Assembly: GCA_965230295.1 (NCBI GenBank)
Contig: OZ246001.1
Span: 320,001-384,000, forward strand
From: Marinicella sp.
GTDB lineage: Bacteria > Pseudomonadota > Gammaproteobacteria > Xanthomonadales > Marinicellaceae
Length of the DNA: 64,000 bases
Direction: 5' to 3'
The translations under genes and the position numbers were made by a program. The notes under the pieces are model-generated. The model made no database searches and was not told the DNA's origin. It worked only from the letters and a program-made list of their open reading frames with translations. Shown in pieces: positions 1,269 through 20,244 of this stretch. The stretch's first letter is position 1; every line of letters starts with the position of its first letter.

Positions 1269-2300
1269 ATGGATACTTTAAACCAATCCCGATACAGCTT
1301 AAAGTCAGTCTGTGCGCTTGTTTTTGCGCTGATATTATCAGCCTGCCAAAGTCCAAGTCCCAGATCTGTCTTTACTGATACCATAGAAGACACACCCATT
1401 GAATTACATACCGTTTTATTGGCATCAAAATGTGAATTAGCCAAAGCATTTGTAGCCATAAAAAATCAGGGTATTGACGTTAAAATCTATGATGGCACCA
1501 TGGAATTCAGCGGCACCATTAAAACAACCAAAGACAAAGGTTTCAGTATTTCTGCTGTCATTCCCCTGGGCGCTGAACATGTGCTAGAACCCGATTTTGG
1601 CTACGGGAATACTGCAGTGACCACCCAAAACATCGTTCTTAAAAACAAACTATCCAGTACAGTTAAAGACACTTCAGTGTGTCAATCACCTACATTAGCA
1701 AATTTTGACACCGGCAACTTTATTTCAGAGGCCATCATCAGCACTGCTGATGGCATTGCATCCATCCCAACTGGACCAGATGGCAAGGCTTATCAGCCGT
1801 CATTGAATGAAACCGAACTTAACATCACCACCTCATTCAACGTTGTGAAACTTAAAAATGGCGGCGTGGCTCTTAAGTATGTCTGGCCAACATCTCGAGA
1901 GCACTTGGATGGACTCACACCAGGTGGAACATTGGATAACTCCATCGATACGACCTACACCTTGACCATTAAACTGCCATTGGTTGCAACAAACCCACCC
2001 GTAGACCCACGTAAAATAATGCGCTGTAAAAATGACATCAGTTCAGGTGAAACCATTTGTATAGAGTCTCCCTATATTGTTAGCGCCAATAAAAATGATG
2101 CCATGGAATATGATGACTTCCCAAGTAGAGGCGTCTTGTGGTTTCTGTCAGAAGAATTCATTCAATGGTTAGGAGAAAATGACCTACTTGGCCAAGGAAA
2201 TATGATGCAACAACAATCCCTGCCTTTCAAACTACCTAAGCAGCCTCCTAAAAACCTAAAAGGCAAAGAAGTAGATGACATCTACACACGAGATCGTTGA
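1269..2300 (+). CDS. Hypothetical lipoprotein, possibly with two Trypco-like domains
   Basis: 343-aa ORF with hydrophobic leader and lipobox ILSAC. Confidence 0.65.
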   Translation: MDTLNQSRYSLKSVCALVFALILSACQSPSPRSVFTDTIEDTPIELHTVLLASKCELAKAFVAIKNQGIDVKIYDGTMEFSGTIKTTKDKGFSISAVIPLGAEHVLEPDFGYGNTAVTTQNIVLKNKLSSTVKDTSVCQSPTLANFDTGNFISEAIISTADGIASIPTGPDGKAYQPSLNETELNITTSFNVVKLKNGGVALKYVWPTSREHLDGLTPGGTLDNSIDTTYTLTIKLPLVATNPPVDPRKIMRCKNDISSGETICIESPYIVSANKNDAMEYDDFPSRGVLWFLSEEFIQWLGENDLLGQGNMMQQQSLPFKLPKQPPKNLKGKEVDDIYTRDR

Positions 2301-2576
2301 TTGATAACAAATAAGATTGATTAATTCACCACAAAATAGACTTTAGTAACTTTAACCGCTTCTGCATCTCCTACCAGCATCATGTGATGTCTTCTTTCAT
2401 CAAGATTTTCTGCGTTGTTGAGGTAGAATTAACTACAGAAGCATAATCATTTGCTGAGATCAGAATCTGACCTTGTTGACTTAATAAACCGTCTCTTTTG
2501 CTGAATGTAATTAGGCAATGGTATTGATTTTGGGTAACGGGCAAATATCTAATGAATGCTAATTAATCTTGAACCC

Positions 2577-3323
2577 TTATTCAACTTCACCTTCAATACT
2601 TGACCAATGATCGTCAAATACGCCTGTAAGTAAATTAGAAACAATAAGAAGACAACATCCAATAATTCCAATTGCCATATTTTCGTTTATTGCGCTTTCA
2701 AAAATCGTATCAACATATTTAAGGTAAAATAACATTACAAAAAATGGAAGTACAACGGGGGCATCTATAAAACGGATTAGACCGACTAGGTATCTTTCTT
2801 GCTTAGTATTTTTGATACCTAACTTGTTTGCTTGACTTTTCACATGTCTCAAAGCAATGTAATTTACGAAAAAAAAGAAGATCAGAGGCATCATAGGAAT
2901 GTAAGGTGCAATACCGTGAATTAAAACGTAGAATGCCTTTCCATCCTCTTGAATTTCAAGCAAAGGAATAAGTTCGCCTTGACTATTAACAACCTTTGTT
3001 TCAAAGAAGATCACAGTTAGTTTTATCAGTATAAAAATGCCAATCACATTGAGCACACAACTCTTAATTCGTGCATTGAATTTTCTAGATGCATACTCAA
3101 AACCGCTAAATTGCATCAGTTTTTGTGCCACAAGAAACACATGAACAAGAGCTGCAATCTCCCAAGCTGCCAAAGGAGGTACTTGCCAACCAACGTAAGA
3201 AGAAAGAAATTTAAGATATGAAGCAATAACAAGAATTACAATAAAAACTATTAAGTGCGTCCAAGCTGAACAGCGAGAATATAGAAAATTCTGAACTCGT
3301 TTGAAATATGAAAAAAAACTCAT
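2577..3323 (-). CDS. Hypothetical polytopic membrane protein (about six TM segments)
   Basis: 248 aa with alternating hydrophobic segments; ATGA overlap with the upstream methyltransferase. Confidence 0.7.
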   Translation of the reverse strand: MSFFSYFKRVQNFLYSRCSAWTHLIVFIVILVIASYLKFLSSYVGWQVPPLAAWEIAALVHVFLVAQKLMQFSGFEYASRKFNARIKSCVLNVIGIFILIKLTVIFFETKVVNSQGELIPLLEIQEDGKAFYVLIHGIAPYIPMMPLIFFFFVNYIALRHVKSQANKLGIKNTKQERYLVGLIRFIDAPVVLPFFVMLFYLKYVDTIFESAINENMAIGIIGCCLLIVSNLLTGVFDDHWSSIEGEVE

Positions 3324-4081
3324 TCTAGTTTCTTCCCAATTATAAGATGATCTTGAAAATCAATTTCTAGGGTTGCATCAGCATATTTCACAAGACGATT
3401 TCCAAATGCTTCCGTCGTAGGAATTGTAGGTCGCCAAAACCTTCTAAGTGATTCAAGTTCAGCTTTGCTAAAACCATCTCCATCTGGAAATTGAAACCGA
3501 GAACGTAGCGTGAATGATGATTCATCGAGATTAAATAGGCGAAAGAGTGATTCAACTTTGTTAGCACAATTTGGCAATGGTGGCAAATCTAGAAAGAAAG
3601 GGCTCTGTTCTGGGAGAACTAAAGCAAACACTGCTCCTCCAGGACGCAAATGAAAATTAATCAAGTCCTTTAATGACTCTTCGAAGTTATCAATGTAGTA
3701 GGTAGAGTGTAAAAACAGAATTGCATCAGTAACATAATCTTCAGGAATTTCTTTGATATTAGAAAACGAATTGTATAGAGGTCCTAGTTTTGATCTTGGC
3801 AAGATATGAGCTTTCACACGTTCTCTAGCCGTTTGTGATGGCTCGACTATCGTTAGTGAAGGGAAGCATCTGGTTTTTGTAAATATCTGTTCGCATATTG
3901 TTTCAGTAGAAGTACCTGTCCCACAACCTATATCTAAAATTGATGTTTGGCAACTCTTGGATGAAGCGTACTTTACAATCGCCCCTGCAATTGCACTTGT
4001 TATTTTATACCAATCATCTGTACTGCAGAACTGTGAAAACAACCTGTAAGAATGATCATGCTTTTTCCAAAAGTCAGACAT
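3320..4081 (-). CDS. Class I SAM-dependent methyltransferase
   Basis: Motif I ILDIGCGTG, acidic IVEPS, DAILFLHSTYYI, LRPGG. Confidence 0.85.
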   Translation of the reverse strand: MSDFWKKHDHSYRLFSQFCSTDDWYKITSAIAGAIVKYASSKSCQTSILDIGCGTGTSTETICEQIFTKTRCFPSLTIVEPSQTARERVKAHILPRSKLGPLYNSFSNIKEIPEDYVTDAILFLHSTYYIDNFEESLKDLINFHLRPGGAVFALVLPEQSPFFLDLPPLPNCANKVESLFRLFNLDESSFTLRSRFQFPDGDGFSKAELESLRRFWRPTIPTTEAFGNRLVKYADATLEIDFQDHLIIGKKLE

Positions 4082-4730
4082 GTTTAAGTATGTTGAGTTG
4101 TTTATCTTCTAAAAGAAATACAGCATCAAAAGGGATAGTGAGTCTCCTTTGATATAACAATATAGTAATTTGATTTTTATTCCTGCGTATTTTAACAATC
4201 TCTGAAAGAAGACTAATTTGCAGTTTATTACTTGGACATGGAATCTCATCAATGATTAAAAGGAATGGATCTAGAATATATGCATAAAAACAAACCACTA
4301 CCCGCCAAAGATCTGGATTCGAAAGATCTCTCGGATTACATTCTAAATTTTTTGGAAGCGAGTGTTTTTCTGCGAAATCAATGTAAATATTTTCTAAAGA
4401 TAGTTTATCTGTGCCTATCGCATAAGAATATAATTCATTCCGAACGGATGAACCAAGAATAGATAAATGACCAACCTGTTGAATATAGGAAGTAATTTTG
4501 CACCGTTCTGCTGGTGGGGTGACTGCTGGCGATATTCCATTAATGAAATAGCTTCCACTATCAGGTTTAATTAACCCAGCAAGAAGACGACCAAATGTCG
4601 TTTTTCCTGAACCATTGTCTCCAATAATTAAAATGCTCTGCCCAGCATCAAAATTGCAGTTGATACCTGATAAGATTGGAGAGGTGGGCCCATATGAAAA
4701 TTCCAAATTTTTAATTTGCAATGTAGTCAT
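4074..4730 (-). CDS. ECF/ABC-type ATPase with degenerate signature motif
   Basis: LEFSY start, Walker A GDNGSGKTT, Q-loop YIQQ, Walker B LLIIDE; signature reads LSNPD. Confidence 0.85.
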   Translation of the reverse strand: MTTLQIKNLEFSYGPTSPILSGINCNFDAGQSILIIGDNGSGKTTFGRLLAGLIKPDSGSYFINGISPAVTPPAERCKITSYIQQVGHLSILGSSVRNELYSYAIGTDKLSLENIYIDFAEKHSLPKNLECNPRDLSNPDLWRVVVCFYAYILDPFLLIIDEIPCPSNKLQISLLSEIVKIRRNKNQITILLYQRRLTIPFDAVFLLEDKQLNILKHV

Positions 4731-4735
4731 AATAA

Positions 4736-5257
4736 TTATTGTACCTCGATTAATCTTGATCCAGAACTTTCTAGGTTTCTTGCGTTTATCAGGTGGGGTA
4801 TCAATATCTTATTATCGTAATCAACAAATGCTGTATTTAGAATACCTAAATTCTCAAAACCATCCAAAAGTTTTCTGATTGTTGAATCTGAAAGGTGGCC
4901 AATAAAATCGACGAAAAGTAGATTATTACACATGCGATTCGCGAACAGAGATAACGCCAAAACTTTTCGCCAACCACCAGAAAGGTGATACACTTTTTTT
5001 TCAAGCACCCCCTCCCAAGACCAAAATTCTATAAACTGATTACAGTTCATGCGAGCATCCAGACACTTATTTTGATGGCTAACCACAAGGTCAATTTCTT
5101 CGCTAACAAACTGTGTGAGGCATGAATATTCAGCAAAAAGAACCGGAGCAAAATAAATCACTGGCTTATCTATGAATCTCGCAAATTGGTTACATATAGT
5201 TTGCGGACGTTGTTCCATTAAACTCCAATCTGAACAAGATATTTGGTAAAAATTCAT
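4736..5257 (-). CDS. Truncated ABC-ATPase-like subunit lacking Walker A
   Basis: Signature HLSGGWRKVLAL and Walker-B-like LLFVDFIGHLS; no GxxGxGK; ATGA-coupled to the ecfT-like gene. Confidence 0.65.
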   Translation of the reverse strand: MNFYQISCSDWSLMEQRPQTICNQFARFIDKPVIYFAPVLFAEYSCLTQFVSEEIDLVVSHQNKCLDARMNCNQFIEFWSWEGVLEKKVYHLSGGWRKVLALSLFANRMCNNLLFVDFIGHLSDSTIRKLLDGFENLGILNTAFVDYDNKILIPHLINARNLESSGSRLIEVQ

Positions 5258-5964
5258 AGGCCGTAATTTCGTTGTATGCCGACTAGAAATAACATTACAA
5301 GTGTAATGAAAAGCAACTTTTGCGCTAAAGTCAGTACTGGCTTTCTCGGATTAGTTGGATAAAAGTAGTGAGGACTTCCCACGATTTCTCGATAGCGAAA
5401 TGCATAGGCTGCTTCGCAAATTGCTGATGTTAACAAAGGAACAATCCAAACATTTAGGTGACGAATATGCTGCAATTTCGTTTCCAGCGGTATTCCTCGT
5501 AGAATACTTGTTTCTCGAATAGTTTCAAGCCTTCGTATTAGTCGCTCTCTTGTAGCGAAGACCGAAATAAGTGGTCTAAATGCTCTTAAACCAGTCCAAT
5601 GTGATAACTCGTGAGGTAATCTTTCTCCTTCCAACTCTGAAACCATGAAAAGTCCAGGAAGAATAACAAGAAAATATGCGTACAATGGAAAAGGTAAACT
5701 TTGTATCAGCTTTTCTGCTTCCAATAAGTCTAAATTGCCGTTAATTATCAATGTCATCATAAAAACATATACAAATGTAAACATTACCAGCAGTAATGCT
5801 GATGACCACTTTTTCCGTATTATGAGAAAAATTGGTAAAATTGTGACACAGATCGCTAGATATAATAATTTCTCACCAAGAAAGTACTCAGCACTATTTT
5901 TAAATAGAAATGATACCAAATAAAGCCCTACCAACACGAATACTGTAAAGTTTGGTGACTTCAT
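5254..5964 (-). CDS. ECF transporter transmembrane T component (divergent)
   Basis: N-terminal TM helices, then IRETSILRG and WIVPLLTSAI resembling EcfT coupling helices; lies between the S component and the ATPases. Confidence 0.65.
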   Translation of the reverse strand: MKSPNFTVFVLVGLYLVSFLFKNSAEYFLGEKLLYLAICVTILPIFLIIRKKWSSALLLVMFTFVYVFMMTLIINGNLDLLEAEKLIQSLPFPLYAYFLVILPGLFMVSELEGERLPHELSHWTGLRAFRPLISVFATRERLIRRLETIRETSILRGIPLETKLQHIRHLNVWIVPLLTSAICEAAYAFRYREIVGSPHYFYPTNPRKPVLTLAQKLLFITLVMLFLVGIQRNYGL

Positions 5965-5966
5965 CT

Positions 5967-6548
5967 TTATTCATTTAATGGTTTTGTTTGTGATCGAAGT
6001 CCAAAATCTTTAAAAAACCTTCTAGGAAGGGAACGAAGAATGAGACAAGCAGATATTGACACTAATATCTTGTCAACAATTTCAGAAGAGATTCCAGATA
6101 AAATCACTGAGTTTAAAATATTTTGACCAGTTTGTCGTATTAGGGCTGTTAACAAATCTACACCACTGGCAGTCACACCACCAAACAAATAAGCAGTCAC
6201 TGGTGCTGAAACAATTGCTGCAACCAGAGCCAGAATAATGCCAGCAATAACGCTTGATCGGATATTTCGGAACATTTGTTTTTTTGTAAGCAACTCACAA
6301 GTGATTACAAGGGCTATAAGGGTCGCAGAGTATGCTGGCAAGTATGGGTTGATTATTAAGAAGCCAACTCCTACAGTAATTGAACCGGTTAATAGACCAT
6401 ACCGCCATCCGAGAAGTACAGTTGAGAGAATCAGGCCAATCGAGTCTAAATAGATTGGTAATTTCAACCATGAAACTATCCCACCTATTGTTAAATTGAT
6501 AGCGGCCAATGCCAGAGCAATTGATGTTTTTTGAATATTCATCTTCAA
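5967..6548 (-). CDS. ECF transporter S component, QrtT-like (ATG at 6542 may be the true start)
   Basis: KLPIYLDSIG..LLG, LFGGVTASGVD and IVDKIL match my recollection of the QrtT/STY3230-type S-component family. Confidence 0.85.
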   Translation of the reverse strand: MKMNIQKTSIALALAAINLTIGGIVSWLKLPIYLDSIGLILSTVLLGWRYGLLTGSITVGVGFLIINPYLPAYSATLIALVITCELLTKKQMFRNIRSSVIAGIILALVAAIVSAPVTAYLFGGVTASGVDLLTALIRQTGQNILNSVILSGISSEIVDKILVSISACLILRSLPRRFFKDFGLRSQTKPLNE

Positions 6549-10352: not shown

Positions 10353-10453
10353 GGATTTAACCTGTTCAAAACAGTTATTTTACCCAAACAACCTGAACTA
10401 AAGCTAAATTATTTTTAACACACCGGGCTACCAGACGAAGTCTGGAAAATACA

Positions 10454-10481
10454 TTGACAAAAATGTGCAAAGCTTTAAACT
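10454..10481 (+). promoter_or_regulatory. Candidate sigma70 promoter for the adhesin/tail-collar operon
   Basis: TTGACA-16 bp-TAAACT about 90 bp upstream of ATG 10570. Confidence 0.5.
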
Positions 10482-10569
10482 TAATAAAAGGGTAATGAAG
10501 GCAGGCAAATCACTGTATTTTATGTCTTCTGAGAAAAATAAATACAAATAAAATTTTAAAGGGGTAAAA

Positions 10570-13500
10570 ATGGGCCGTCACATCACAGCAGCGTTCTGCT
10601 TTCTCTCATGCATTGCATTTTCTTCTGTTCAAGCGCAAGATCGTTACTATCATGTTTACATCGACAGTGACAATGAAACCACCACTGGGTGTGATGTCAA
10701 CATCCCGGATTTTGCCACCACACTTAATGGCATAGACTCAAGGGTCACCATCACCACCAACAGTGCTTTACCACCTGCCATTACCAACAGCAGTATACAC
10801 ACCTGTACGGGTGCCGCCTTTGATGCGGGTGTGCCCGTTAATGCGGCTGCATTGGGCTTCAACACGGGCTTCAACGGTTCTGATGTGTTTGAGACCAGTA
10901 TTGACCGAACTGATTTGCTTCACACTTCGCAACGCAGCCTGCGCGCTTATTTTGCCACCGACACTGCGGTTGCAGATGATGTGGTGCTGACCAACAGTGG
11001 CGGTGGTGCAATCCTGTTGGGATTCCCTTTTGCCATCCCTACTCTCAGTCTATTCGGTTTATTGCTGATTGCCATGCTGGTTTTACTGGCTTCAAGAAAA
11101 CAGCTCCACAAGCGAATCATGGTTTCTGTGGTATTGGTTGGCGTAGCGACAGTGGCGCTTGCCATGAGCATTGTGGTCGATGGTCAAACCAATGACTGGA
11201 TGAATATCGGGCCGGCTAACACCGATCCCGTTGGTGACACTTCTGCAGCAGGTAATTATGCAGATTTAACTGCCGTCTATTTGACTCAACAAAATGATGT
11301 CATTTTCTTCCGCATGGATGTATCCGATTTGGAAAACCAGGCACCCACAATCACCACAGCTGCAGCAGTCAGCGTGGTTGAAAACCAGACAGCAGTTATT
11401 GATGTCAATTCAACTGACCCAGAAGGCGATGTTGAAGGCGCTGGTTTAAGCTACACCATCACAGGTGCTGTTGATGATGCCCTGTTCACAATCAACCCCA
11501 ACACTGGAGTTCTGACTTTCCTGGTAGCGCCAGATTTCGAAAACCCAAGTGATGTGGGTGCAGACAATGTGTATAACGTGCAAGTCACAGTGACCGACTC
11601 TGGGGCCGCCACCGATGTACAAGACCTGGCTGTCACCGTCACCAATGATGTGGTGGATGACACTTCCGTGGCATTCCAAACAGCCAACAGCAACACCGTT
11701 GATGAAGGCACTGCATTGAATGTGGTTGTACAGCTAACTGCATCAGCACCACTGACAGCGGCGGTATCTATCGACGTAGTGGATGCTGGCGGTGGTTCTG
11801 CCACCAGTGGCTCTGATTACACCGCATTCGGCACACAAACGGTGACGTTCCCAATGGGCGCCACCAATGGCACAACACAGAATGTCATTTTGACTCCCAA
11901 TGATGATGTCAATGTAGAAAACAACGAAACTGTCAATCTACAACTGCAAAATATCAGTGGCCCGGCATTAATTGGCAGCCAAACGGCTCATGTGGTCAGT
12001 ATCACAGAAGATGATGTGGCAACAGTTGAATTTGATACCGCTGCCAGTGGCACAGTTGATGAAAACACTCCATTGGATATAACTGTACGATTAAACATTC
12101 CCAGTGGCGGGCAGTTAGATGTTGCCGTCAGTGCAGATGTGGTTGATGCAGGCACCGGAACCGCGACCAGTGGGGTTGATTACACCGCTTTTGGTACCCA
12201 AATGGTGACATTCCCAATTGGCTCAACCAACGCCAATACACAAAACACAACGCTAACGCCATTGGATGATCCTAATTCAAAAGGCAATGAAACAGTCGAT
12301 TTAGCTTTACAAAATTTAACCGGACCACCAGCGGCATCACTGGGTACTCAAACCACCCACACAGTCACCATTACTGATGATGAAGCCGCAGTATCATTCC
12401 AAGTTACCAGCAGCTCAACGGTAGATGAAGGCACTAACCTGAATGTGGCCGTGGTATTGAGCACACCAATTCCCTTAACGGCACCAGTTTCAGTGGATGT
12501 GATTGACGTTGGTGGTGGATCTGCCATCAGTGGCACAGATTTCATCGCCTTTGGCACCCAAACTGTGACTTTCCCATTGGGTTCAACCAATGGCACCATC
12601 CAAAATGCGGTGTTATCGCCGATTGATGACAACAATGTAGAAAACAATGAAACCGTGAATTTAGAGCTACAAAACCTGGTTGGTACTGGATCGATAGGCA
12701 CTCAAAACACACACACAGTGACCATCACAGAAGACGACACAGCCAGTGTGGCATTCCAAGCGGCCAGCAGTGCAACGGTCAATGAAGGTACGCCACTGAA
12801 TATCAGTGTATTATTGACCATCCCGAGTGGTGGCCAATTAGACATCGCAGTTTCTGCCGATGTGATCGATGCAGGTGGTGGATCAGCCACCAGTGGTGTT
12901 GATTACAATGTTTTTGGCACCCAAGCCATAACATTTCCTGTGGGTACTGGAAACGGTGCCACACAAACCTCAACTTTAACGCCCATCGATGATCCAAATT
13001 CAGAAGGCAATGAAACGGTCAATTTGGCGTTGCAGAATCTAGTTGGACCCATTTCGGCTTCCTTAGGAGCGCCAACCGCCCACACGGCCACGATCACCGA
13101 TGACGAAGCTTCTGTGGTGTTCCAAAATATTGCCAGCTCGACCATTGATGAAGGCACAGCTTTGAATATACCAGTGGTGTTATCAACCCCAATTCCATTG
13201 GGTGCACCTTTGTCTGTTGATGTGGTCGATGCCGGCGGTGGGTCAGCCACCAGTGCTGCAGATTACACGGCCATTGGCACACAAACCGTCACTTTCCCAA
13301 TGGGTTCTACCAATGGTGCCACGCAGAATGCCAATTTCAACCCCATCGATGACACCAATGTTGAAAACAATGAGACGGTCAATTTACAGTTACAAAATCT
13401 GGTTGGTTCAGGTTCGATTGGCACCCAATCCACACAAACCATCACCATCACTGAAAATGATACTGCCACGGTTGAATTCCAGGCTGCCAACAGCGCCACA

Positions 13501-16500
13501 GTAGATGAAAGCACTGCACTGAATATCAATGTGCTATTAAACATCCCCAGTGGTGGCCAGTTAGATGTTGCGATCACTCTGGATGCCATTGATGCCGGTG
13601 GTGGTTCTGCCACCAGTGGTGTAGATTACACCGCTTTTGGCACCCAAATGCTGACTTTCCCTGTTGGTTCAAACGATGGTGCGACACAAAACACCACACT
13701 CACCCCGCTTGATGATGTTGCTACCGAAGGTGACGAAACGGTTAATTTACAGTTGCAAAACCTGGCTGGGCCAATACTGGCTGGTTTGGGTGCACAGACC
13801 ACCCACACCGCCACCATCACTGATGATGACAACACCGCCCCAACGGCCAACCCGGACAGCTATGAAACAATTGGTAACACCGGGCTCAATGCCACTGCAG
13901 GTGCACCATCCACTCCGATACTGCACCCCCAGAATTTGATTTTCAACGACACCGACCCAGAATTGGATCCATTGGTGGTGTCTGAAGCCATGGGTGACTT
14001 GACAGCTCCATTCACAGGAACAGGTACTATGGGCGGTGATGTCGTGGTGCAAGCCAATGGTGATTTCACCTACTACCCACCAGTGGGTGTAACCGGCATT
14101 ACTGACACCTTTGATTACACCGTCAGTGATGGCAGCCTCACTTCATCAGCAACCGTATCAATCACCGTCACAGCCGATTTGGTTTATTATGTAGATAACA
14201 CCGCTGCAGCTGGTGGTACCGGTCGAGATGATGCTCGTTTTGACCAACTGTCAGATGTTCCGGCGGCAGCTGCCAACACCACTGTCTTTGTTTTCCAAGG
14301 TGCCGGTGATACCACAGGTGCCATCACCATGGGAGCCAACCAAGTCTTGATTGGTAATGGTGTCAATCTGGAATTCAATGTCAACAACACCTTACCCAAT
14401 CCAGATGTTTTGATTCCTGCTGCTGGTCGTCCAACATTAACCGGAACCTCAACTTTGGGCACCAACAACACCATCAGGGGCCTGAACATTGGTAACACGG
14501 GTGCTCAGACAGGCATCACAGGTAACAACTTTGGTACCGCCACCATCAACAATGTGGCCATCAACGGTACCGGAAAAGCCCTTGACTTAACCACCGGTAC
14601 AGCAGCAATGACTTTTGATTCAATTGCTTCAACCAACAGTGCTTCTGAGGGTGTTGACCTCAGTGAAGTGAGTGGTAATTTCACAGTTACGGGACTGACA
14701 AACATCACCAATCCAGCACAAATTGGGGTGAACATCCAAAATTCCAATTTGATCTATACTTTTGGCGACGTCACAGTGAACAACCGCAACAGTGCAGGTG
14801 TGTTCATCAATGCCTTCACTGGTGGAACTCAAACCGGTACATTCGGTAATGTGGTCATCAACAACCAAAACACCTCTCCTTCCACGGCCTTTGGCATCGA
14901 CAACACGGTTACTGGTGGTAGTATCATCAATGTGGCCAGCGTGGCCATCGACAACAATGGGTCTAACAGTTCAGCCATCGCCCTGTCTAACAACGATGGC
15001 GCCACCATCAACATCAATGGCGGCAGCGTACAAGGTGCAGCGGGTGCGGCTGTGAGTATATCCAGCAGTGCAGGCAATGCAACTTATGCAGGATCGATCA
15101 ACAACACAGCTGGACGTTCACTACAGGTGTTGAACAACACAGGTGGTGTGACCACCCTATCAGGAAACATCACTGATTCCGGGACTGGCATATTCGTAAA
15201 TAACAACACTGGATCCACCATCAACTTCTCAGGAACCATTGACTTAGACACCACCACCAATACCGCATTCACAGCAACTGGCGGTGGTACCGTAAATGCC
15301 ACTGGCAGTAGCAGCACCATCAACACCAGCAGTGGCATCGCAGTGGATGTGCAAAATACCACCATTGGAGCCAGTAACCTGACATTCCAAAGCATCTCTG
15401 CCGGGACTGGTGCAGGCACAGCAGGGGTTGGCATCAACTTGGTCAATACGGGAAATGCAGGTGGTTTGGCTGTTACAGGAGTGGCCTCCAACGCCAGTTC
15501 TGGCGGTGTCATTCAAAATAAAAATGGCGCCAATGGCAGCACCGCTGGAGGCATTGGTATTCACCTGAACAACACCAGTAACGTTTCACTGAGAAACATG
15601 CAATTGGGCGGCTTTGATAATTTCGCCATACGTGGCACCACAGTGACCAACTTCACCATGATCGATTCTGTGGTCAATGCCAACAGCGGTAATTCAGCAG
15701 CCGATGATGAAGGCGCCATCAGTTTCACCAACCTGTTGGGTACGTCAGTCTTTTCAGGCAACAATGTGGCTGGTGGTTTTGAGGACCAAATCAAAATAAC
15801 CAATACCACAGGAACCTCCAGCATCACCGTTAATGACAGCGCCAATGATGCAGCTGTGATTGGCCTGGATGCCAACCCGGCAGGTACCAATGGCAATGAT
15901 GGCATCTTGGTCGAAAGCCAGATGGCTGCACAAATTAATTTAACCGTAGATGGTGTTGAATTCTTGGGCGCCCGTGGTGACATGATACAAACCAATGCAT
16001 TGAATACATCAAACTTCACGACTTTGATTCAAAACAACAGTTTCAATAACAGCCACCCTAACATTGTACCTGGCGGTGGCGGCATCACCTTATCCGGTGG
16101 TGGGGCGGGTGCCAACATCACCAAAGGCTATGATGTGTTGAATTCCAATTTCACCGGGGCTGTGGGCAATGCCACCACAGTTAATTTTGTTTCAGGTGCT
16201 GGTACCGTCAGTGGCGAAGTCACTAACAACATGGTCGGCACCAATGGTGTACCAGCCTCTGGCTCCACAACTGCCAGCGGGATTTCGATTGGTGCCTCAG
16301 CCAATGTACAACACAACACCACCATTGATAATAATCAGGTCAGGGGTGTCAGTGGTTTTGCCGGCATTGAAACCGTAGCCAATACCGATGTCAACTTCAA
16401 TGCCACCATCATCAATAATGTGGTTGAACAACTGGCAGGAAATGTACTCGGTGCCATGTACAACCTGGTTGGCGGAGCAGGCACTGAAACGGGTACTGCT

Positions 16501-16797
16501 TGCTTAGATGTAAGAAGTAATACTTTTGATGCCAGTGCTGCCCCATTTGCGGGCCACGCCGTATTAAAAGATCAGATCAGTGCTACTGCCAACTTCAATT
16601 TGCCAGGTTATACCGGATCGCCTAACGGCGAATTTGCCTTTGCTTGTGCAACTGGCACTGCCGGTGTTAATGCTGGGGCCCATCATGCCGGAAATTTCAA
16701 TACCATGACCAATGGGCCCTTCCCGTTTATTGTTGGTGGTGTGGATGCCACCATTGTTTGTGGCATGACAGGCATAGGCACCAGCTGCCCGCAATAA
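10570..16797 (+). CDS. Giant surface/adhesin-like protein: signal peptide, internal IPTL-TM segment, cadherin-like domain, six Calx-beta-like repeats, Ig-like domain, beta-helix region
   Basis: 2075 aa. AIPTLSLFGLLL at aa 155-166; NQAPTIT..DFENP..VTND cadherin pattern; SATSGxDY..TFP..DD..E.NETV repeats; NTAPTANPD..DTFDYTVSDG; N/T/G-rich C-terminal half. Confidence 0.85.
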   Translation: MGRHITAAFCFLSCIAFSSVQAQDRYYHVYIDSDNETTTGCDVNIPDFATTLNGIDSRVTITTNSALPPAITNSSIHTCTGAAFDAGVPVNAAALGFNTGFNGSDVFETSIDRTDLLHTSQRSLRAYFATDTAVADDVVLTNSGGGAILLGFPFAIPTLSLFGLLLIAMLVLLASRKQLHKRIMVSVVLVGVATVALAMSIVVDGQTNDWMNIGPANTDPVGDTSAAGNYADLTAVYLTQQNDVIFFRMDVSDLENQAPTITTAAAVSVVENQTAVIDVNSTDPEGDVEGAGLSYTITGAVDDALFTINPNTGVLTFLVAPDFENPSDVGADNVYNVQVTVTDSGAATDVQDLAVTVTNDVVDDTSVAFQTANSNTVDEGTALNVVVQLTASAPLTAAVSIDVVDAGGGSATSGSDYTAFGTQTVTFPMGATNGTTQNVILTPNDDVNVENNETVNLQLQNISGPALIGSQTAHVVSITEDDVATVEFDTAASGTVDENTPLDITVRLNIPSGGQLDVAVSADVVDAGTGTATSGVDYTAFGTQMVTFPIGSTNANTQNTTLTPLDDPNSKGNETVDLALQNLTGPPAASLGTQTTHTVTITDDEAAVSFQVTSSSTVDEGTNLNVAVVLSTPIPLTAPVSVDVIDVGGGSAISGTDFIAFGTQTVTFPLGSTNGTIQNAVLSPIDDNNVENNETVNLELQNLVGTGSIGTQNTHTVTITEDDTASVAFQAASSATVNEGTPLNISVLLTIPSGGQLDIAVSADVIDAGGGSATSGVDYNVFGTQAITFPVGTGNGATQTSTLTPIDDPNSEGNETVNLALQNLVGPISASLGAPTAHTATITDDEASVVFQNIASSTIDEGTALNIPVVLSTPIPLGAPLSVDVVDAGGGSATSAADYTAIGTQTVTFPMGSTNGATQNANFNPIDDTNVENNETVNLQLQNLVGSGSIGTQSTQTITITENDTATVEFQAANSATVDESTALNINVLLNIPSGGQLDVAITLDAIDAGGGSATSGVDYTAFGTQMLTFPVGSNDGATQNTTLTPLDDVATEGDETVNLQLQNLAGPILAGLGAQTTHTATITDDDNTAPTANPDSYETIGNTGLNATAGAPSTPILHPQNLIFNDTDPELDPLVVSEAMGDLTAPFTGTGTMGGDVVVQANGDFTYYPPVGVTGITDTFDYTVSDGSLTSSATVSITVTADLVYYVDNTAAAGGTGRDDARFDQLSDVPAAAANTTVFVFQGAGDTTGAITMGANQVLIGNGVNLEFNVNNTLPNPDVLIPAAGRPTLTGTSTLGTNNTIRGLNIGNTGAQTGITGNNFGTATINNVAINGTGKALDLTTGTAAMTFDSIASTNSASEGVDLSEVSGNFTVTGLTNITNPAQIGVNIQNSNLIYTFGDVTVNNRNSAGVFINAFTGGTQTGTFGNVVINNQNTSPSTAFGIDNTVTGGSIINVASVAIDNNGSNSSAIALSNNDGATININGGSVQGAAGAAVSISSSAGNATYAGSINNTAGRSLQVLNNTGGVTTLSGNITDSGTGIFVNNNTGSTINFSGTIDLDTTTNTAFTATGGGTVNATGSSSTINTSSGIAVDVQNTTIGASNLTFQSISAGTGAGTAGVGINLVNTGNAGGLAVTGVASNASSGGVIQNKNGANGSTAGGIGIHLNNTSNVSLRNMQLGGFDNFAIRGTTVTNFTMIDSVVNANSGNSAADDEGAISFTNLLGTSVFSGNNVAGGFEDQIKITNTTGTSSITVNDSANDAAVIGLDANPAGTNGNDGILVESQMAAQINLTVDGVEFLGARGDMIQTNALNTSNFTTLIQNNSFNNSHPNIVPGGGGITLSGGGAGANITKGYDVLNSNFTGAVGNATTVNFVSGAGTVSGEVTNNMVGTNGVPASGSTTASGISIGASANVQHNTTIDNNQVRGVSGFAGIETVANTDVNFNATIINNVVEQLAGNVLGAMYNLVGGAGTETGTACLDVRSNTFDASAAPFAGHAVLKDQISATANFNLPGYTGSPNGEFAFACATGTAGVNAGAHHAGNFNTMTNGPFPFIVGGVDATIVCGMTGIGTSCPQ
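11665..13830 (+). repeat. Six Calx-beta-like coding repeats arranged (AB)3 with a 723-bp period
   Basis: Equivalent Phe codons at 11674, 12031, 12397, 12754, 13120 and 13477 (alternating 357/366 bp spacing). Confidence 0.9.
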
Positions 16798-16871
16798 ACA
16801 CAATAATATTGTGAAGCTGCATATGTTTTTGTTGTATAATAAAGTAGATATATTTTAAAGGGGGATATCAA

Positions 16872-17378
16872 ATGTCAGAACCATTTTTGGCCGAAATCAG
16901 GATGATGGGCTTTAATTTCGCACCCAGAGGATGGGCACTTTGTGATGGACAAATCTTGCCCATCAACCAAAACCAGTCGCTGTATTCGTTGTTGGGAACC
17001 ACCTATGGTGGTGATGGCCGCACTTCATTCGCATTGCCTGAGTTGCGTGGCCGCACACCTATCCATGTAGGACAAGACGGTGGGAGCAGTTTTACCGAGG
17101 GTCAACAGGGCGGCGAGGAAGCCCATACACTGACCATCAGTGAAATACCACAACACAAGCATGACGTACACACGTCAGCCAATGATGGTAATGCACCGAT
17201 TCCTGTAGACAATACCTTGGGTGGCTTTAACAACGGTTATAACAGTGGCAGCAACCTGCTTAACATGACCAATGAAGTGGCCAATGCTGGCGGCGGCCAA
17301 GCTCATAACAACATGCAACCTACCTTGGCGGTGAATTTTTGTATCGCCCTACAAGGTTTGTTCCCACCAAGAAACTAG
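16872..17378 (+). CDS. Phage tail-collar domain protein (MdpB/microcystin-dependent protein-like), copy 1
   Basis: MSEPFLAEIR..FNFAPRGWALCDGQ..SLLGTTYGGDG..FALPELRGR; PQHKH; NFCIALQGLFP. Confidence 0.92.
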   Translation: MSEPFLAEIRMMGFNFAPRGWALCDGQILPINQNQSLYSLLGTTYGGDGRTSFALPELRGRTPIHVGQDGGSSFTEGQQGGEEAHTLTISEIPQHKHDVHTSANDGNAPIPVDNTLGGFNNGYNSGSNLLNMTNEVANAGGGQAHNNMQPTLAVNFCIALQGLFPPRN

Positions 17379-17387
17379 GAGGTCATC

Positions 17388-17906
17388 ATGTCAGAACCAT
17401 TTGTAGGCGAAATCAGAATGTTTGCCGGGAACTTTGCCCCTCGTGGCTGGGCTTTTTGTGATGGGCAATTACTTGCTGTGTCGCAGAATGACGCTTTATT
17501 TTCACTGTTGGGTACCATCTATGGCGGTGATGGCCGAACCACTTTTGGCTTACCGGATATGCGAGGTCGCATTCCCAACCATGCAGGAACTGGCCCTGGC
17601 CTTTCACCCAGACCACTTGGACAAAAAACGGGCAGTGAAAATGAAACTTTAACCGTTAATCAACTGCCATCACACAATCATGACATGTCGGTATCGACAG
17701 ATGCAGGTACTCAGAGCACCAGCAACGGGCAATATTTGGCCTCATCGCCGAATGTGCGTATTTTCAGACCAGCCGGTCCCAACAGTTCACTGTTGAATAC
17801 ATCAGTGACTAACTTTGGAGGCAGCGGTTCACACGCCAACGTGATGCCATTTTTGTGTGTGAATTTTATCATCGCATTGGTTGGAATTTATCCAAGTCGC
17901 ACCTAA
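17388..17906 (+). CDS. Phage tail-collar domain protein, copy 2
   Basis: Same motifs; PSHNH; AGGAGG RBS. Confidence 0.92.
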   Translation: MSEPFVGEIRMFAGNFAPRGWAFCDGQLLAVSQNDALFSLLGTIYGGDGRTTFGLPDMRGRIPNHAGTGPGLSPRPLGQKTGSENETLTVNQLPSHNHDMSVSTDAGTQSTSNGQYLASSPNVRIFRPAGPNSSLLNTSVTNFGGSGSHANVMPFLCVNFIIALVGIYPSRT

Positions 17907-17916
17907 GGAGCTTATC

Positions 17917-18441
17917 ATGTCAGAACCATTTATTGCAGAAATCAGAATATTCGCAGGTAACTTTGCTCCCAGGAGCTGGGCCTTTTGTAATGGCCAATTG
18001 TTACCTATTGCACAAAACACCGCATTGTTTTCTTTGATCGGCACCACATATGGTGGTGATGGAAGAACCACCACTGCCTTACCTAACTTACAAGGCCGTG
18101 CACCCATGCACCCTGGCCGTGGGCCAGGACTCACAGATCGACGACTGGGTCAAAAAGGTGGTACGGAAACCGTCACCCTTAACGATAATCAGATACCAAG
18201 TCATAACCACAACCTCAACACTTCTACATCACCAGGTACCTCTTTCAGTCCAACAGCGTCTGCTTATTTATCAAGAAGTGTGGGCGGCAATGCATATGAC
18301 AGTGGTGACAACTTGAGCAGTGAAATGAACACTGGCGCCTTACAAAACATGGGCGGCAGCCAGGCTCACAACAACATGCAACCTTTCTTGGCGATTAATT
18401 ACATCATCGCTCTGCAAGGATTGTATCCTTCCAGAGGTTAA
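17917..18441 (+). CDS. Phage tail-collar domain protein, copy 3
   Basis: Start moved to ATG 17917 (MSEPF, AAGGAG RBS); same motifs; PSHNH. Confidence 0.92.
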   Translation: MSEPFIAEIRIFAGNFAPRSWAFCNGQLLPIAQNTALFSLIGTTYGGDGRTTTALPNLQGRAPMHPGRGPGLTDRRLGQKGGTETVTLNDNQIPSHNHNLNTSTSPGTSFSPTASAYLSRSVGGNAYDSGDNLSSEMNTGALQNMGGSQAHNNMQPFLAINYIIALQGLYPSRG

Positions 18442-18443
18442 TC

Positions 18444-18797
18444 ATGAACAGAAGAAATTTTGCCAAAAACATCATCGGTGGTTTAGGACTGTCAATGGTT
18501 GCAGGTCAAACCGTACACGCTGCCAACTCTGAAAAATCAGCACAGCCCTTTGAGGCCGGACACCAAATGCAAACAGCTGATGGCATGAAAATGACACTCA
18601 GCCAGCACTCTTTAGCCACCCAAAATCAGGATCGCCAACAGTTCATTTTGACATTTGATGTGCACAATAACACCGCACCATTAACTGAGAAAATATACCG
18701 ATTGAAAGATCATAACGGAGTGAACCATGAGATCTTTATGAGCCCTGTAGGTAAACAAAAACTACAAGCCTTATTCAATTGGAGAACTCATGCATGA
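18444..18797 (+). CDS. Tat-signal protein, DUF6916-like
   Basis: MNRRNFAK twin-arginine leader ending VHA; QFILTF..IYRL..EIFMSPVG..LQALFN. Confidence 0.7.
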   Translation: MNRRNFAKNIIGGLGLSMVAGQTVHAANSEKSAQPFEAGHQMQTADGMKMTLSQHSLATQNQDRQQFILTFDVHNNTAPLTEKIYRLKDHNGVNHEIFMSPVGKQKLQALFNWRTHA

Positions 18798-19332
18798 AGA
18801 ATGGCTGGCATTTAACGGTGCAGCCAAACTGATTCCTGAGGAAATCACTTTTCAAGCCATGTCAGATAATGACATGGCTTTTTTATCTGAACTTTATCGC
18901 ACCACACGGTGGCAAGAAGTGCAACAGGCACCTTGGAATGACGAACAACGCAAGTCCTTCTTACACCAACAGTTCACCGCCCAACACCAGCATTACCTGA
19001 CTCATTATCCAAATGCACAAAAGTTGCTGATCTTGAAAAATCAACAATGCATAGGCAGGATTTATTTGGACCGTGATGAAGATTCAATCTGCCTGATTGA
19101 TGTGGCCATATTGCCCAATCATCACCGACAAGGAATTGGTACTGCTATATTGAAGGAGTTGCTCACTGAGGCACAGTTGTCACAAAAGAAAGTAATGATC
19201 CATGTTGAAAACTTCAACCCCGCATATCAATGGTATGAAAAACACGGGTTCCGGCAAATTGAAGACAAAGGTGTGTACCAATACATGGAATGGTACCCCA
19301 TACCTAAAGGTCAGGTGAATACAGCCTCATAG
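18790..19332 (+). CDS. GNAT-family N-acetyltransferase
   Basis: DVAILPNHHRQGIGT acetyl-CoA motif; NPAYQWYEKHGF. Confidence 0.92.
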   Translation: MHEEWLAFNGAAKLIPEEITFQAMSDNDMAFLSELYRTTRWQEVQQAPWNDEQRKSFLHQQFTAQHQHYLTHYPNAQKLLILKNQQCIGRIYLDRDEDSICLIDVAILPNHHRQGIGTAILKELLTEAQLSQKKVMIHVENFNPAYQWYEKHGFRQIEDKGVYQYMEWYPIPKGQVNTAS

Positions 19333-19604
19333 TGCACTTCACTGTCATTACCAAAAACAGGAACCAAAAACAAATCGAACTCACCTAATTCCGTGTGACT
19401 GACCCGATAAACCCCTTGTTCATAAACCATTGGATCGGGATTTTTAAACACCACTGAAAACTGCTTTTCACCTTTTTCATTAGGAGTCGCATTTGAAACA
19501 GTGATTTCTTTGATATCACACTTGTCAGGCTGATCTTGAGTGAACTTTATGGAAAAACTATCGTCTTGGTGACTTTCAAACTGATGTAATTGAGGTAGAT
19601 TCAT
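19311..19604 (-). CDS. DUF6916-like protein
   Basis: QFSVVF..EQGVYRVSH..LGEFDLFLVPV..YEAVF, typical of small proteins that accompany tail-collar triplets. Confidence 0.8.
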   Translation of the reverse strand: MNLPQLHQFESHQDDSFSIKFTQDQPDKCDIKEITVSNATPNEKGEKQFSVVFKNPDPMVYEQGVYRVSHTELGEFDLFLVPVFGNDSEVHYEAVFT

Positions 19605-19683
19605 GCTATTGGATAAAAGACAAAATTGATGAATAATTATACATCGTATAACAAAGGTTTTTGCAGCACTTTATCGATCTAAT

Positions 19684-20226
19684 TCAGAACGGATTCAGCG
19701 TAAATCCTTGTTGTTGCAGCTGAGCATGTGCTGTCATGGCAGACAGAGACATTTTGATGCCAGGCAGCAAGTCTTCTGTTTTGACTCCATAGTAAGCAGC
19801 GCTTTGGCCACAAACATAAAACTGAACGCCCTTTTCTTGTAAAGCTTTTATCAATGTGGCATGGCTTTTCTTATCAATCGACTGAGTACTGTCGTGGCTG
19901 GATTGACTGACATCTTTAACAGCTCCACCATGAATGACGACTGCCAATTCAATATTCTCCACAGGAACGCCAGCCGCCGTGTGCATATTAATAAAACGAG
20001 CCGCACTTTCGATAGATCGGTTGATATCACCTGCATTGGCCGCTTTTGCCACATCGAAACTGATTCTGAATGTACTCCCAGAATCAATAGGTAGCCTACC
20101 CGGAACATCGGCATACATGCCAAAATCCGGAATGGTTGTTCCCGCTTTGAACTTGTCCAGTTGGGCCATGGGTTGATTGCTTACCAACACCAGAAAAAAC
20201 AGCATTAAGGATTTTGATTTGAACAT
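19684..20226 (-). CDS. Exported DsrE-family protein
   Basis: Signal peptide; ARFINMH, AVVIHG, GVQFYVCGQSA. Confidence 0.85.
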   Translation of the reverse strand: MFKSKSLMLFFLVLVSNQPMAQLDKFKAGTTIPDFGMYADVPGRLPIDSGSTFRISFDVAKAANAGDINRSIESAARFINMHTAAGVPVENIELAVVIHGGAVKDVSQSSHDSTQSIDKKSHATLIKALQEKGVQFYVCGQSAAYYGVKTEDLLPGIKMSLSAMTAHAQLQQQGFTLNPF

Positions 20227-20244
20227 TCAATAGCTCCTGTTTCT

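Follow-up and report, generated by a model that had tools for sequence, protein, structure and literature searches.

The window analysed here is a stretch of 64,000 nucleotides (nt) from a Marinicella sp. genome (GenBank assembly GCA_965230295.1, contig OZ246001.1, positions 320,001 to 384,000 of the forward strand), and the coordinates below are positions within it. The locus under study, at 10570-19604, is a cassette of seven genes encoding one giant surface protein, three small paralogues with the phage tail collar domain, a GNAT acetyltransferase and a pair of DUF6916 proteins, one of which has a predicted twin-arginine (Tat) signal. The genome is a single contig of 4.0 Mb, rated 97.9% complete. 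An original prediction, made from the nucleotide sequence alone, had listed an exported repeat protein of 2075 amino acids (aa), three signal-less collar proteins, a Tat protein, a GNAT and a convergent DUF6916 gene; open reading frames (ORFs) and Pfam matches bear out this gene content at the positions given in the following paragraphs.

The first gene, at 10570-16797 on the plus strand, encodes the giant protein of 2075 aa, in which Pfam recognizes Cadherin, Calx-beta (three stretches) and Big_9. Three consecutive, co-oriented collar genes lie beyond it on the same strand at 16872-17378, 17388-17906 and 17917-18441, with intergenic gaps of 9 nt between the first and second and 10 nt between the second and third. 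Their products of 168, 172 and 174 aa match Collar (PF07484, gathering cut-off 24 bits) with 99.2, 105.2 and 95.7 bits (E 1.3e-28, 1.7e-30 and 1.6e-27), and collar 1 also matches Gp10_C with 29.7 bits. Identity to the first paralogue is 48-56%, and all three proteins begin MSEPF. The start of collar 3 is most likely the ATG at 17917 rather than the TTG at 17881, because AAGGAG lies upstream of the former and orthologues begin at the same MSEPF. A hydrophobic N-terminus and a signal peptide are missing from all three proteins. The HxH motifs PQHKH, PSHNH and PSHNH, with HxH at residues 95-97, 96-98 and 96-98, are exactly as first read.

The remaining genes are tightly packed. The Tat-signal DUF6916 gene (18444-18797, plus strand, 117 aa) starts 2 nt after collar 3 and matches PF21880 with 32.6 bits, the gathering cut-off being 27 bits. 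The GNAT gene (18790-19332, plus strand, 180 aa; PF13508 with 49 bits, PF00583 with 46.7 bits) has a start that overlaps the Tat-signal DUF6916 stop by 8 nt. The signal-less DUF6916 gene (19311-19604, minus strand, 97 aa; PF21880 with 77.2 bits) is convergent with the GNAT gene, with an overlap of 22 nt. Genome-wide, the Collar genes are these three only, and the DUF6916 genes these two only.

Recurrence of the cassette and its insertion site

A scan for relatives, taking one genome per species, confirmed at least 592, and the analysis covers the best 80 loci among them. These loci were retrieved through patterns from the collar N-terminus and represent the nearest relatives, not a random sample. 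Their ORFs were called and then searched with the proteins of the window, using phmmer and, for DUF6916, the family hidden Markov model (HMM). The loci come from Acidobacteriota, Chloroflexota, Verrucomicrobiota, Planctomycetota, Gemmatimonadota, Bacteroidota, Actinomycetota, Calditrichia, and Alpha- and Gammaproteobacteria, with collar identities to the window of 56-87%. By collar 1, the closest named relatives belong to the genus Marinicella itself (87% and 72% identity). Contig ends cut many of the 80 loci, leaving 31 that are fully flanked, with at least 7 kb on each side of the small genes.

At least three collar genes occur in 78 of the 80 loci; the order 1-2-3 is kept in 67, and the triplet is doubled in three. 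A GNAT gene is present in 77 loci, DUF6916 in 66 by phmmer or 68 by the family HMM, and a homologue of the giant protein in 50. Among fully flanked loci, an ORF of 1000 aa or more stands no farther than 2 kb from the core in 27 of 31, and 23 of 31 have a detectable giant homologue. The gene for the giant lies on the strand of the collars in 47 of its 50 loci and at most 400 bp away in 39, and of the 67 loci with both a GNAT and a DUF6916 gene, 52 have the two no more than 50 bp apart. One more large cluster of ORFs in these loci, from GC-rich genomes, looks antisense to the collar genes. The recurrence of tail-collar triplets with a GNAT beside giant proteins, which the original prediction had pointed to, is real and far beyond chance, and gene neighbourhoods support a genuine linkage of GNAT, DUF6916 and giant protein to the collar triplet.

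A phyletic profile was drawn up for the genome of the window and 30 relatives. Collar and DUF6916 are present together in the same 21 of these 31 genomes and absent together from the same 10; all 31 are kin, so the counts amount to no statistical test. Three Collar matches are found in 19 of the 21 carriers, and in the remaining two the locus is broken by contig ends. Carriers make up 14 of 18 congeners, and both families occur in 7 of 13 genera. Comparison shows the seven genes to behave as a transferable unit. The cassette is widespread among bacteria and apparently unstudied: the literature searched, supplementary tables lying outside the search, yielded no description of the cassette and no mention of DUF6916.

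Such patchy occurrence of an accessory block, together with the presence of phage receptor-binding parts, is what would be seen if the cassette were an anti-phage device, for example a decoy or receptor mask derived from a receptor-binding protein. None of the seven proteins scanned (0/7) matches PADLOC, however, and the cassette has no other part that looks like a sensor or effector. We regard an anti-phage role as very improbable.

The insertion site was identified by comparison of gene order. To the left of the cassette lie lolA, rarA and crcB, and to the right a DsrE-like gene, ftsK and the gene for alanine dehydrogenase. In a congener (G013, 97% complete) that has neither Collar nor DUF6916, the alanine dehydrogenase gene, ftsK, lolA, rarA and crcB are contiguous, with a gap of 100 bp between ftsK and lolA. 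In G019, from another family of the order, ftsK adjoins lolA as well. Because ftsK and lolA are neighbours in these two genomes, the 9.9 kb at 10353-20244 is, relative to them and as judged from gene order, an insertion between lolA and ftsK. The GC fraction of the cassette is 0.481, compared with 0.423 for the rest of the window. Neither direct nor inverted repeats of at least 10 nt were found around the insertion, and promoter and terminator scans did not rise above shuffled expectation (counts of 11, with 15.0 expected, and of 16, with 11.5 expected). The DsrE-like protein, which has a signal peptide (19684-20226, minus strand), is encoded inside the inserted block. Its gene accompanies the cassette in three of the 80 loci (L006, L007 and L018), all of them close relatives, and so is probably not part of the core.

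The absence of sheath and baseplate genes, initially noted for the cassette, extends to the whole genome. A prophage or contractile system encoded elsewhere, to which the original prediction had been exposed, was searched for throughout the single contig, and Phage_sheath_1, Baseplate_J and VipB each have 0 matches. Three viral collections were also compared: 50,697 phage records, PHROGs, and IMG/VR, from which the best 80 of 209 relatives were analysed. Collar 2 matches 469 of the 50,697 phage records, all at less than 60% identity and, among the matches listed, at about 36% at best, compared with 56-69% for relatives of the cassette from other phyla. Neither the phage records (at E <= 0.01) nor PHROGs contain a match to DUF6916. 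Among the best 80 of 209 relatives in IMG/VR, a single collar gene is found in 72, three collar genes in seven and a GNAT in three, with no DUF6916 and no homologue of this giant protein in any.

Two kinds of viral locus in that collection deserve separate description. Three loci (L087, L088 and L089) carry collar triplets of another kind, with proteins of 183-206 aa that are mutually far more alike, and no GNAT is visible on their short contigs. In a further locus (L092), a GNAT and a triplet are followed by an open ORF of 1563 aa that phmmer does not link to the giant protein of the window.

The collars themselves resemble phage parts. They match tail families in PHROGs, and among solved structures a long tail fibre (8kec, E 1e-5) and T4 gp12 (1ocy, E 5e-4). 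One could therefore take the locus for what is left of a prophage, a tailocin or a contractile injection system, or for a part serving one encoded elsewhere. The phage-free genome, the greater distance of phage relatives than of cassettes in other phyla, the lack of DUF6916 from the phage records, and the lack of PHROG matches for both DUF6916 and the conserved module of the giant all argue against this explanation, to which we give almost no weight. In PHROGs, the profiles matched are 266-1150 positions long, and the match occupies their interior or their end; phage versions are therefore the tips of long fibres, and the collars of the cassette tips without the shaft. A cellular, non-phage unit is supported by the unoccupied site in relatives, by a genome free of phage genes and by the absence of DUF6916 from 50,697 phage records.

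Three collar paralogues

A tree was built from 201 collar proteins, those of the window and of the 66 loci in which the triplet is clean; 14 loci without a clean triplet were omitted. Labels for position in the operon require 10 changes on this tree. The minimum is 2, the mean for shuffled labels is 95.5, and none of the shuffles (0/200) gave a value as low. Collar 1 of the window falls in a clade of 67 rows, 63 of which are first-position genes, with a Shimodaira-Hasegawa-like approximate likelihood ratio test (SH-aLRT) support of 99. In the alignment, 36 columns are at least 90% conserved and identical across all three groups, and 12 residues each mark out one paralogue, with such signatures placed in a collar base that does not otherwise vary. 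Comparison supports the view that the three collars are distinct, ancient and non-interchangeable subunits that are always kept together.

Variation is unevenly spread along the proteins, in the pattern of conserved termini around a variable middle that had been described for the three paralogues. The frequency of the commonest residue is 0.80-0.96 over residues 1-60, 0.34-0.55 over residues of about 100-140, and 0.75-0.89 near the C-terminal end, with one exception there, the final two-residue block of collar 2, at 0.48. The stretch around residues 100-140 is rich in insertions and deletions as well as variable, and the C-terminal strand is nearly invariant. Differences from the closest congener lie almost entirely within residues 60-150. 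The proteins begin five residues ahead of the first collar strand, which leaves no room for a long N-terminal shaft. For each paralogue, HxH is retained without exception in the 30 orthologues compared; in T4 fibres, HxH sites hold metal. As a whole, this pattern is to be expected if the paralogues occupy three fixed positions in one complex whose exposed head evolves fast.

An experimental analogue exists. In the virophage DSLV2, three consecutive PF07484 proteins are reported to co-purify through a single tag as a 1:1:1 heterotrimer (Chu et al., J Virol 2025, PMC12724248). According to the same report, these tail proteins give one native band of about 55 kDa, form 16-nm fibres and bind lipopolysaccharide of Synechococcus.

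Assembly of the collars as a 1:1:1 heterotrimer, forming a shaft-less knob of the fibre-tip kind, is most likely, and the heterotrimeric tip first proposed for this locus remains the best reading, because the ancient orthogroups stand in fixed order, 19 of 21 genomes have three Collar matches, and the DSLV2 proteins co-purify in equal proportions. The alternative is that the paralogues form three separate homotrimers, giving three knobs with three specificities. The tip of T4 gp12 is a homotrimer. That of gp37 is described as one too, and molecular dynamics found one DSLV2 homotrimer to be fairly stable (PMC12724248). Separate homotrimers would leave unaccounted for the fixed order of the paralogues, the retention of exactly one of each across phyla and the paralogue-specific signatures in a base that is otherwise invariant, and they run counter to the co-purification just described; we consider them distinctly unlikely.

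One contig of 47.5 kb from a public sequencing run matches the window at 17385-18062, only over conserved collar stretches, at about 80-86% identity and at high depth, which points to a related cassette in some other organism of the sample.

The giant protein and the accessory genes

The N-terminal part of the giant protein has a conserved layout of an unusual kind. Its translation begins with a signal-peptide-like stretch (residues 1-22; 10570-10635, plus strand), and a membrane hairpin lies at 11032-11178 on the same strand, composed of an IPTL-CTERM-like helix with a basic loop (residues 155-178) and a second helix (residues 183-203). In 17 aligned homologues from several phyla, the order is signal, a domain of about 130 aa, IPTL-CTERM-like helix and basic loop, second helix, and a DGxxxDW domain; the second helix ends in an AxA-like motif in most of them. 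The hairpin scores 22 bits against PF18203 in a six-frame search and 18.7 bits in the protein scan, on either side of the cut-off of 20.8 bits. The motif stands at residues 155-178 of 2075, and hence not at the C-terminus, as a sorting signal requires. Exosortase_EpsH has no match in the genome.

Two side observations concern this region. The stretch at 10570-11199 reads as though two proteins had been fused in frame, one consisting of the signal, the domain of about 130 aa and the IPTL-CTERM-like part, the other running from the second helix onward; in two loci (L073 and L045) an ORF of its own encodes the first part. The only other match to IPTL-CTERM above cut-off in the genome is at C1:2285662-2285724 on the minus strand, with 21.1 bits, in an open frame of 261 aa.

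What the giant neighbours of other triplets share is the C-terminal module (residues 1080-2075; 13807-16794, plus strand). Of the 50 loci with a giant hit, 32-40 cover residues 1100-2000, except for a variable stretch that 17 loci cover, and just four of the 50 cover the Calx-beta repeats. The 996-aa module has no Pfam match and no PHROG match, and a Foldseek search with it returned nothing at E <= 0.001. Modelled with the help of 26 homologues, residues 1080-2075 reach a mean predicted local distance difference test score (pLDDT) of 84.4; the model contains an immunoglobulin-like domain and two beta-helix stretches. From residue 1580 or so to 2057 (15307-16740, plus strand), VIA-align on the model identifies a right-handed parallel beta-helix of the type known from pectate lyases and tailspikes. 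Its best comparisons are AlgE4 epimerase (Z 30.0, 332 residues aligned, root mean square deviation 3.2), the Vibrio polysaccharide lyase RbmB (Z 28.5) and phi29 gp12 (Z 28.5), followed by polygalacturonases, phage tailspikes and PL6 lyases (Z 22-27) and by the adhesins PfbA, Vag8 and pertactin (Z 25-27). The adhesins with this fold score nearly as high. The fold cannot decide between cutting and binding of a glycan.

The last 60 residues or so of the giant are modelled poorly. About 100 residues from the end is the motif RxRQR..TT.RLPGY.G, and roughly half of the 26 aligned rows end in or near Cys-Pro. This conserved C-terminal tail could be a docking site.

DUF6916 is a large family, with 9,310 representative clusters (50% identity, E <= 0.001). 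The best 150 are mostly stand-alone proteins of about 100 aa. A search of the protein Atlas with DUF6916 found DUF6916 clusters only, and no fusions were found among the longer proteins, which is weak evidence. The best profile hit, the library protein P0002 of 237 aa (E 3.5e-36), contains two tandem DUF6916 stretches, so the barrel can occur doubled in one chain. The signal-less protein of the window is modelled with a pLDDT of 93.3 as one helix and a six-stranded beta-barrel. Foldseek finds nothing for it at E <= 0.001 in PDB or BFVD. The best VIA-align comparisons are MrkH (Z 7.9) and YcgR-N (Z 7.4), of the PilZ/YcgR-N-like kind, although values of Z below 8 may reflect a mere common arrangement.

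The other DUF6916 protein begins MNRRNFAK, followed by a hydrophobic stretch and VHA-A, a predicted twin-arginine signal with an AxA-type site, and TatC is encoded in the genome (E 2.5e-67). Tat-like copies were recognized by pattern in 19 of the 80 loci, with two more (L007 and L053) seen by eye, and always stand beside a signal-less copy. They recur in Gammaproteobacteria, Verrucomicrobiota, Chloroflexota and Alphaproteobacteria.

The acetyltransferase carries QGIGTA at residue 114, in agreement with the acetyl-CoA motif of GNAT enzymes, [RQ]xxGx[GA]. Its likeness to RimI is only weak (40.9 bits against the equivalog model TIGR01575, with a cut-off of 86.4), and its best solved relative, 6wqb (E 8e-8), was deposited as an 'N-terminal acetyltransferase, GNAT family'. 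A Ser or Ala start bared by removal of Met is a classic substrate type for N-terminal acetylation. Among 234 collar homologues, 224 have Ser, Ala or Thr at residue 2, within a start of the form M-[S/A]-[E/D/Q]-P-[F/Y], a count partly biased by the retrieval patterns.

Elsewhere in the window, the GC fraction at 2001-6000 is 0.35-0.36, compared with about 0.42 for the window, and this may be a further acquired block. A run of six co-oriented ORFs occupies the minus strand at 2577-6548, and the one scanned there (5967-6548) has no Pfam match.

Interpretation and known systems

We lean, with confidence a little better than even, towards a surface recognition or adhesion device, formed by the 1:1:1 collar knob together with the tailspike-like giant protein and encoded by a horizontally mobile, cellular cassette. 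The knob would consist of a nearly invariant collar base, an HxH site of the metal-holding kind found in T4, and a hypervariable distal head that may bind the ligand, probably a glycan. The regular partner of the triplet is the giant, with a conserved C-terminal module that ends in the beta-helix. The cytoplasmic GNAT may modify the knob, perhaps with DUF6916 as an adaptor, the most plausible target being the Ser or Ala N-terminus left after removal of Met. The folded knob must then cross the inner membrane, and in the genome of the window the Tat-signal DUF6916 protein is an obvious candidate as carrier, by hitchhiking. Outside, the knob would act with the Sec-exported, hairpin-anchored giant, possibly in glycan processing.

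Several points weigh against this reading, and topology is its weak point. The collars lack signal peptides, genes for a secretion apparatus are missing from the cassette, and the route predicted for the giant is Sec; nor does any further recurrent gene family, a secretion apparatus included, occur in the 80 loci. The cytoplasmic loop of the hairpin has only about five residues, and the giant and the collar knob therefore cannot meet inside the cell. Hitchhiking cannot be the general export route, since a Tat-signal DUF6916 copy is found in 19 of 80 loci only. An enzymatic role for the beta-helix is not favoured by its most conserved columns, which are mostly Gly and Asn, with no obvious catalytic residues. 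The tally of collar N-termini suited to acetylation is partly biased, because the loci were found with patterns from that very region. Finally, co-transferred genes need not bind one another. Complex prediction for collars 1, 2 and 3, each with the signal-less DUF6916, gave scores of 0.28, 0.37 and 0.28 against a mark of 0.32, but these runs were control-free and count as evidence neither way.

Because the collars are signal-less and most loci have no Tat copy, a non-surface role stays a serious rival. The knob might be a soluble, lectin-like protein of the cytoplasm or periplasm, or one released by lysis or in vesicles, with the giant as a neighbour only through transfer of the block. The cassette has no secretion genes, a giant homologue was detected in 50 of the 80 loci and not in all, RhiB, a fellow member of COG4675, is filed under function unknown (PMC6969944), and COG4675 proteins are reported from bulk soil metaproteomes (PMC5579227); all of this would suit such a role. 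Mere block transfer fits less well with a giant gene so regularly close by and co-oriented, with the neighbour of at least 1000 aa in most fully flanked loci, or with a shared part of the giant that is one specific module and not generic repeats, and a hypervariable head is typical of outward-facing proteins. We hold the non-surface role to be improbable, if less so than the other alternatives considered above.

The surface device could be carried further, to a new organelle made from two phage receptor-binding parts: a GNAT-acetylated, metal-clamped heterotrimer, exported by DUF6916/Tat hitchhiking, docked on the tail of the giant and bearing a strain-specific, exchangeable head. Taken with all of its parts, this proposal is unlikely. 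If the reading as a surface device is true, bacteria of many phyla reuse a phage fibre tip and a tailspike-like helix for surface recognition of their own, along with an acetyltransferase dedicated to these parts and perhaps an export route of an unusual kind. For decades, small cellular Collar proteins (COG4675, such as MdpB and RhiB) have carried annotations but no function, and the cassette supplies a fixed set of partners for them.

Known systems resemble parts of the cassette. Small proteins of cellular origin in COG4675, named 'microcystin-dependent protein', include MrpB/MdpB of Microcystis, which have no assigned function. RhiB of Rhizobium leguminosarum is likewise a small cellular, non-phage COG4675 protein of unknown function, but rhiABC is a distinct operon under quorum-sensing control; the comparison is by description only, and no triplet, GNAT or DUF6916 is part of that description (PMC6969944).

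The phage fibre proteins T4 gp12, gp37 and gp10 (PF07484 plus PF21939) share with the cassette the collar domain, the HxH motif and a C-terminal strand that returns to the collar. They are long homotrimers with an N-terminal shaft in the baseplate, whereas the proteins of the cassette are shaft-less, come as three paralogues and occur in a genome without baseplate genes.

For the putative export route the model is Tat hitchhiking, in which a signal-less folded partner is carried by a twin-arginine subunit, as in HybO/HybC of Escherichia coli hydrogenase-2 and in DmsA/DmsB. Translation of the Tat-signal DUF6916 gene is coupled to that of the collar genes, and the binding of DUF6916 to a collar that hitchhiking would require is putative; unlike in those systems, most cassette loci lack a Tat-signal copy. 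For the giant, AlgE4, RbmB, phi29 gp12 and the tailspikes of Det7 and Pam1 share the fold of the last 480 or so residues of the module, with Z of 26-30, but no family match exists at the level of sequence, and adhesins of the same fold are nearly equal in score.

The closest parallel is DSLV2, of the Aquatic Virophage 1 lineage. There the genes lie in a viral genome beside capsid genes, and the proteins, of 196-247 aa compared with 168-174 aa here, are attached to the capsid; the cassette by contrast is chromosomal and is found in many bacterial phyla. The main text of the DSLV2 paper does not contain the word 'acetyltransferase', and the paper, as available to us, describes neither a DUF6916 nor a giant partner (PMC12724248). 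Both systems have three consecutive, co-oriented small PF07484 genes, whose products combine a collar base with a variable head.

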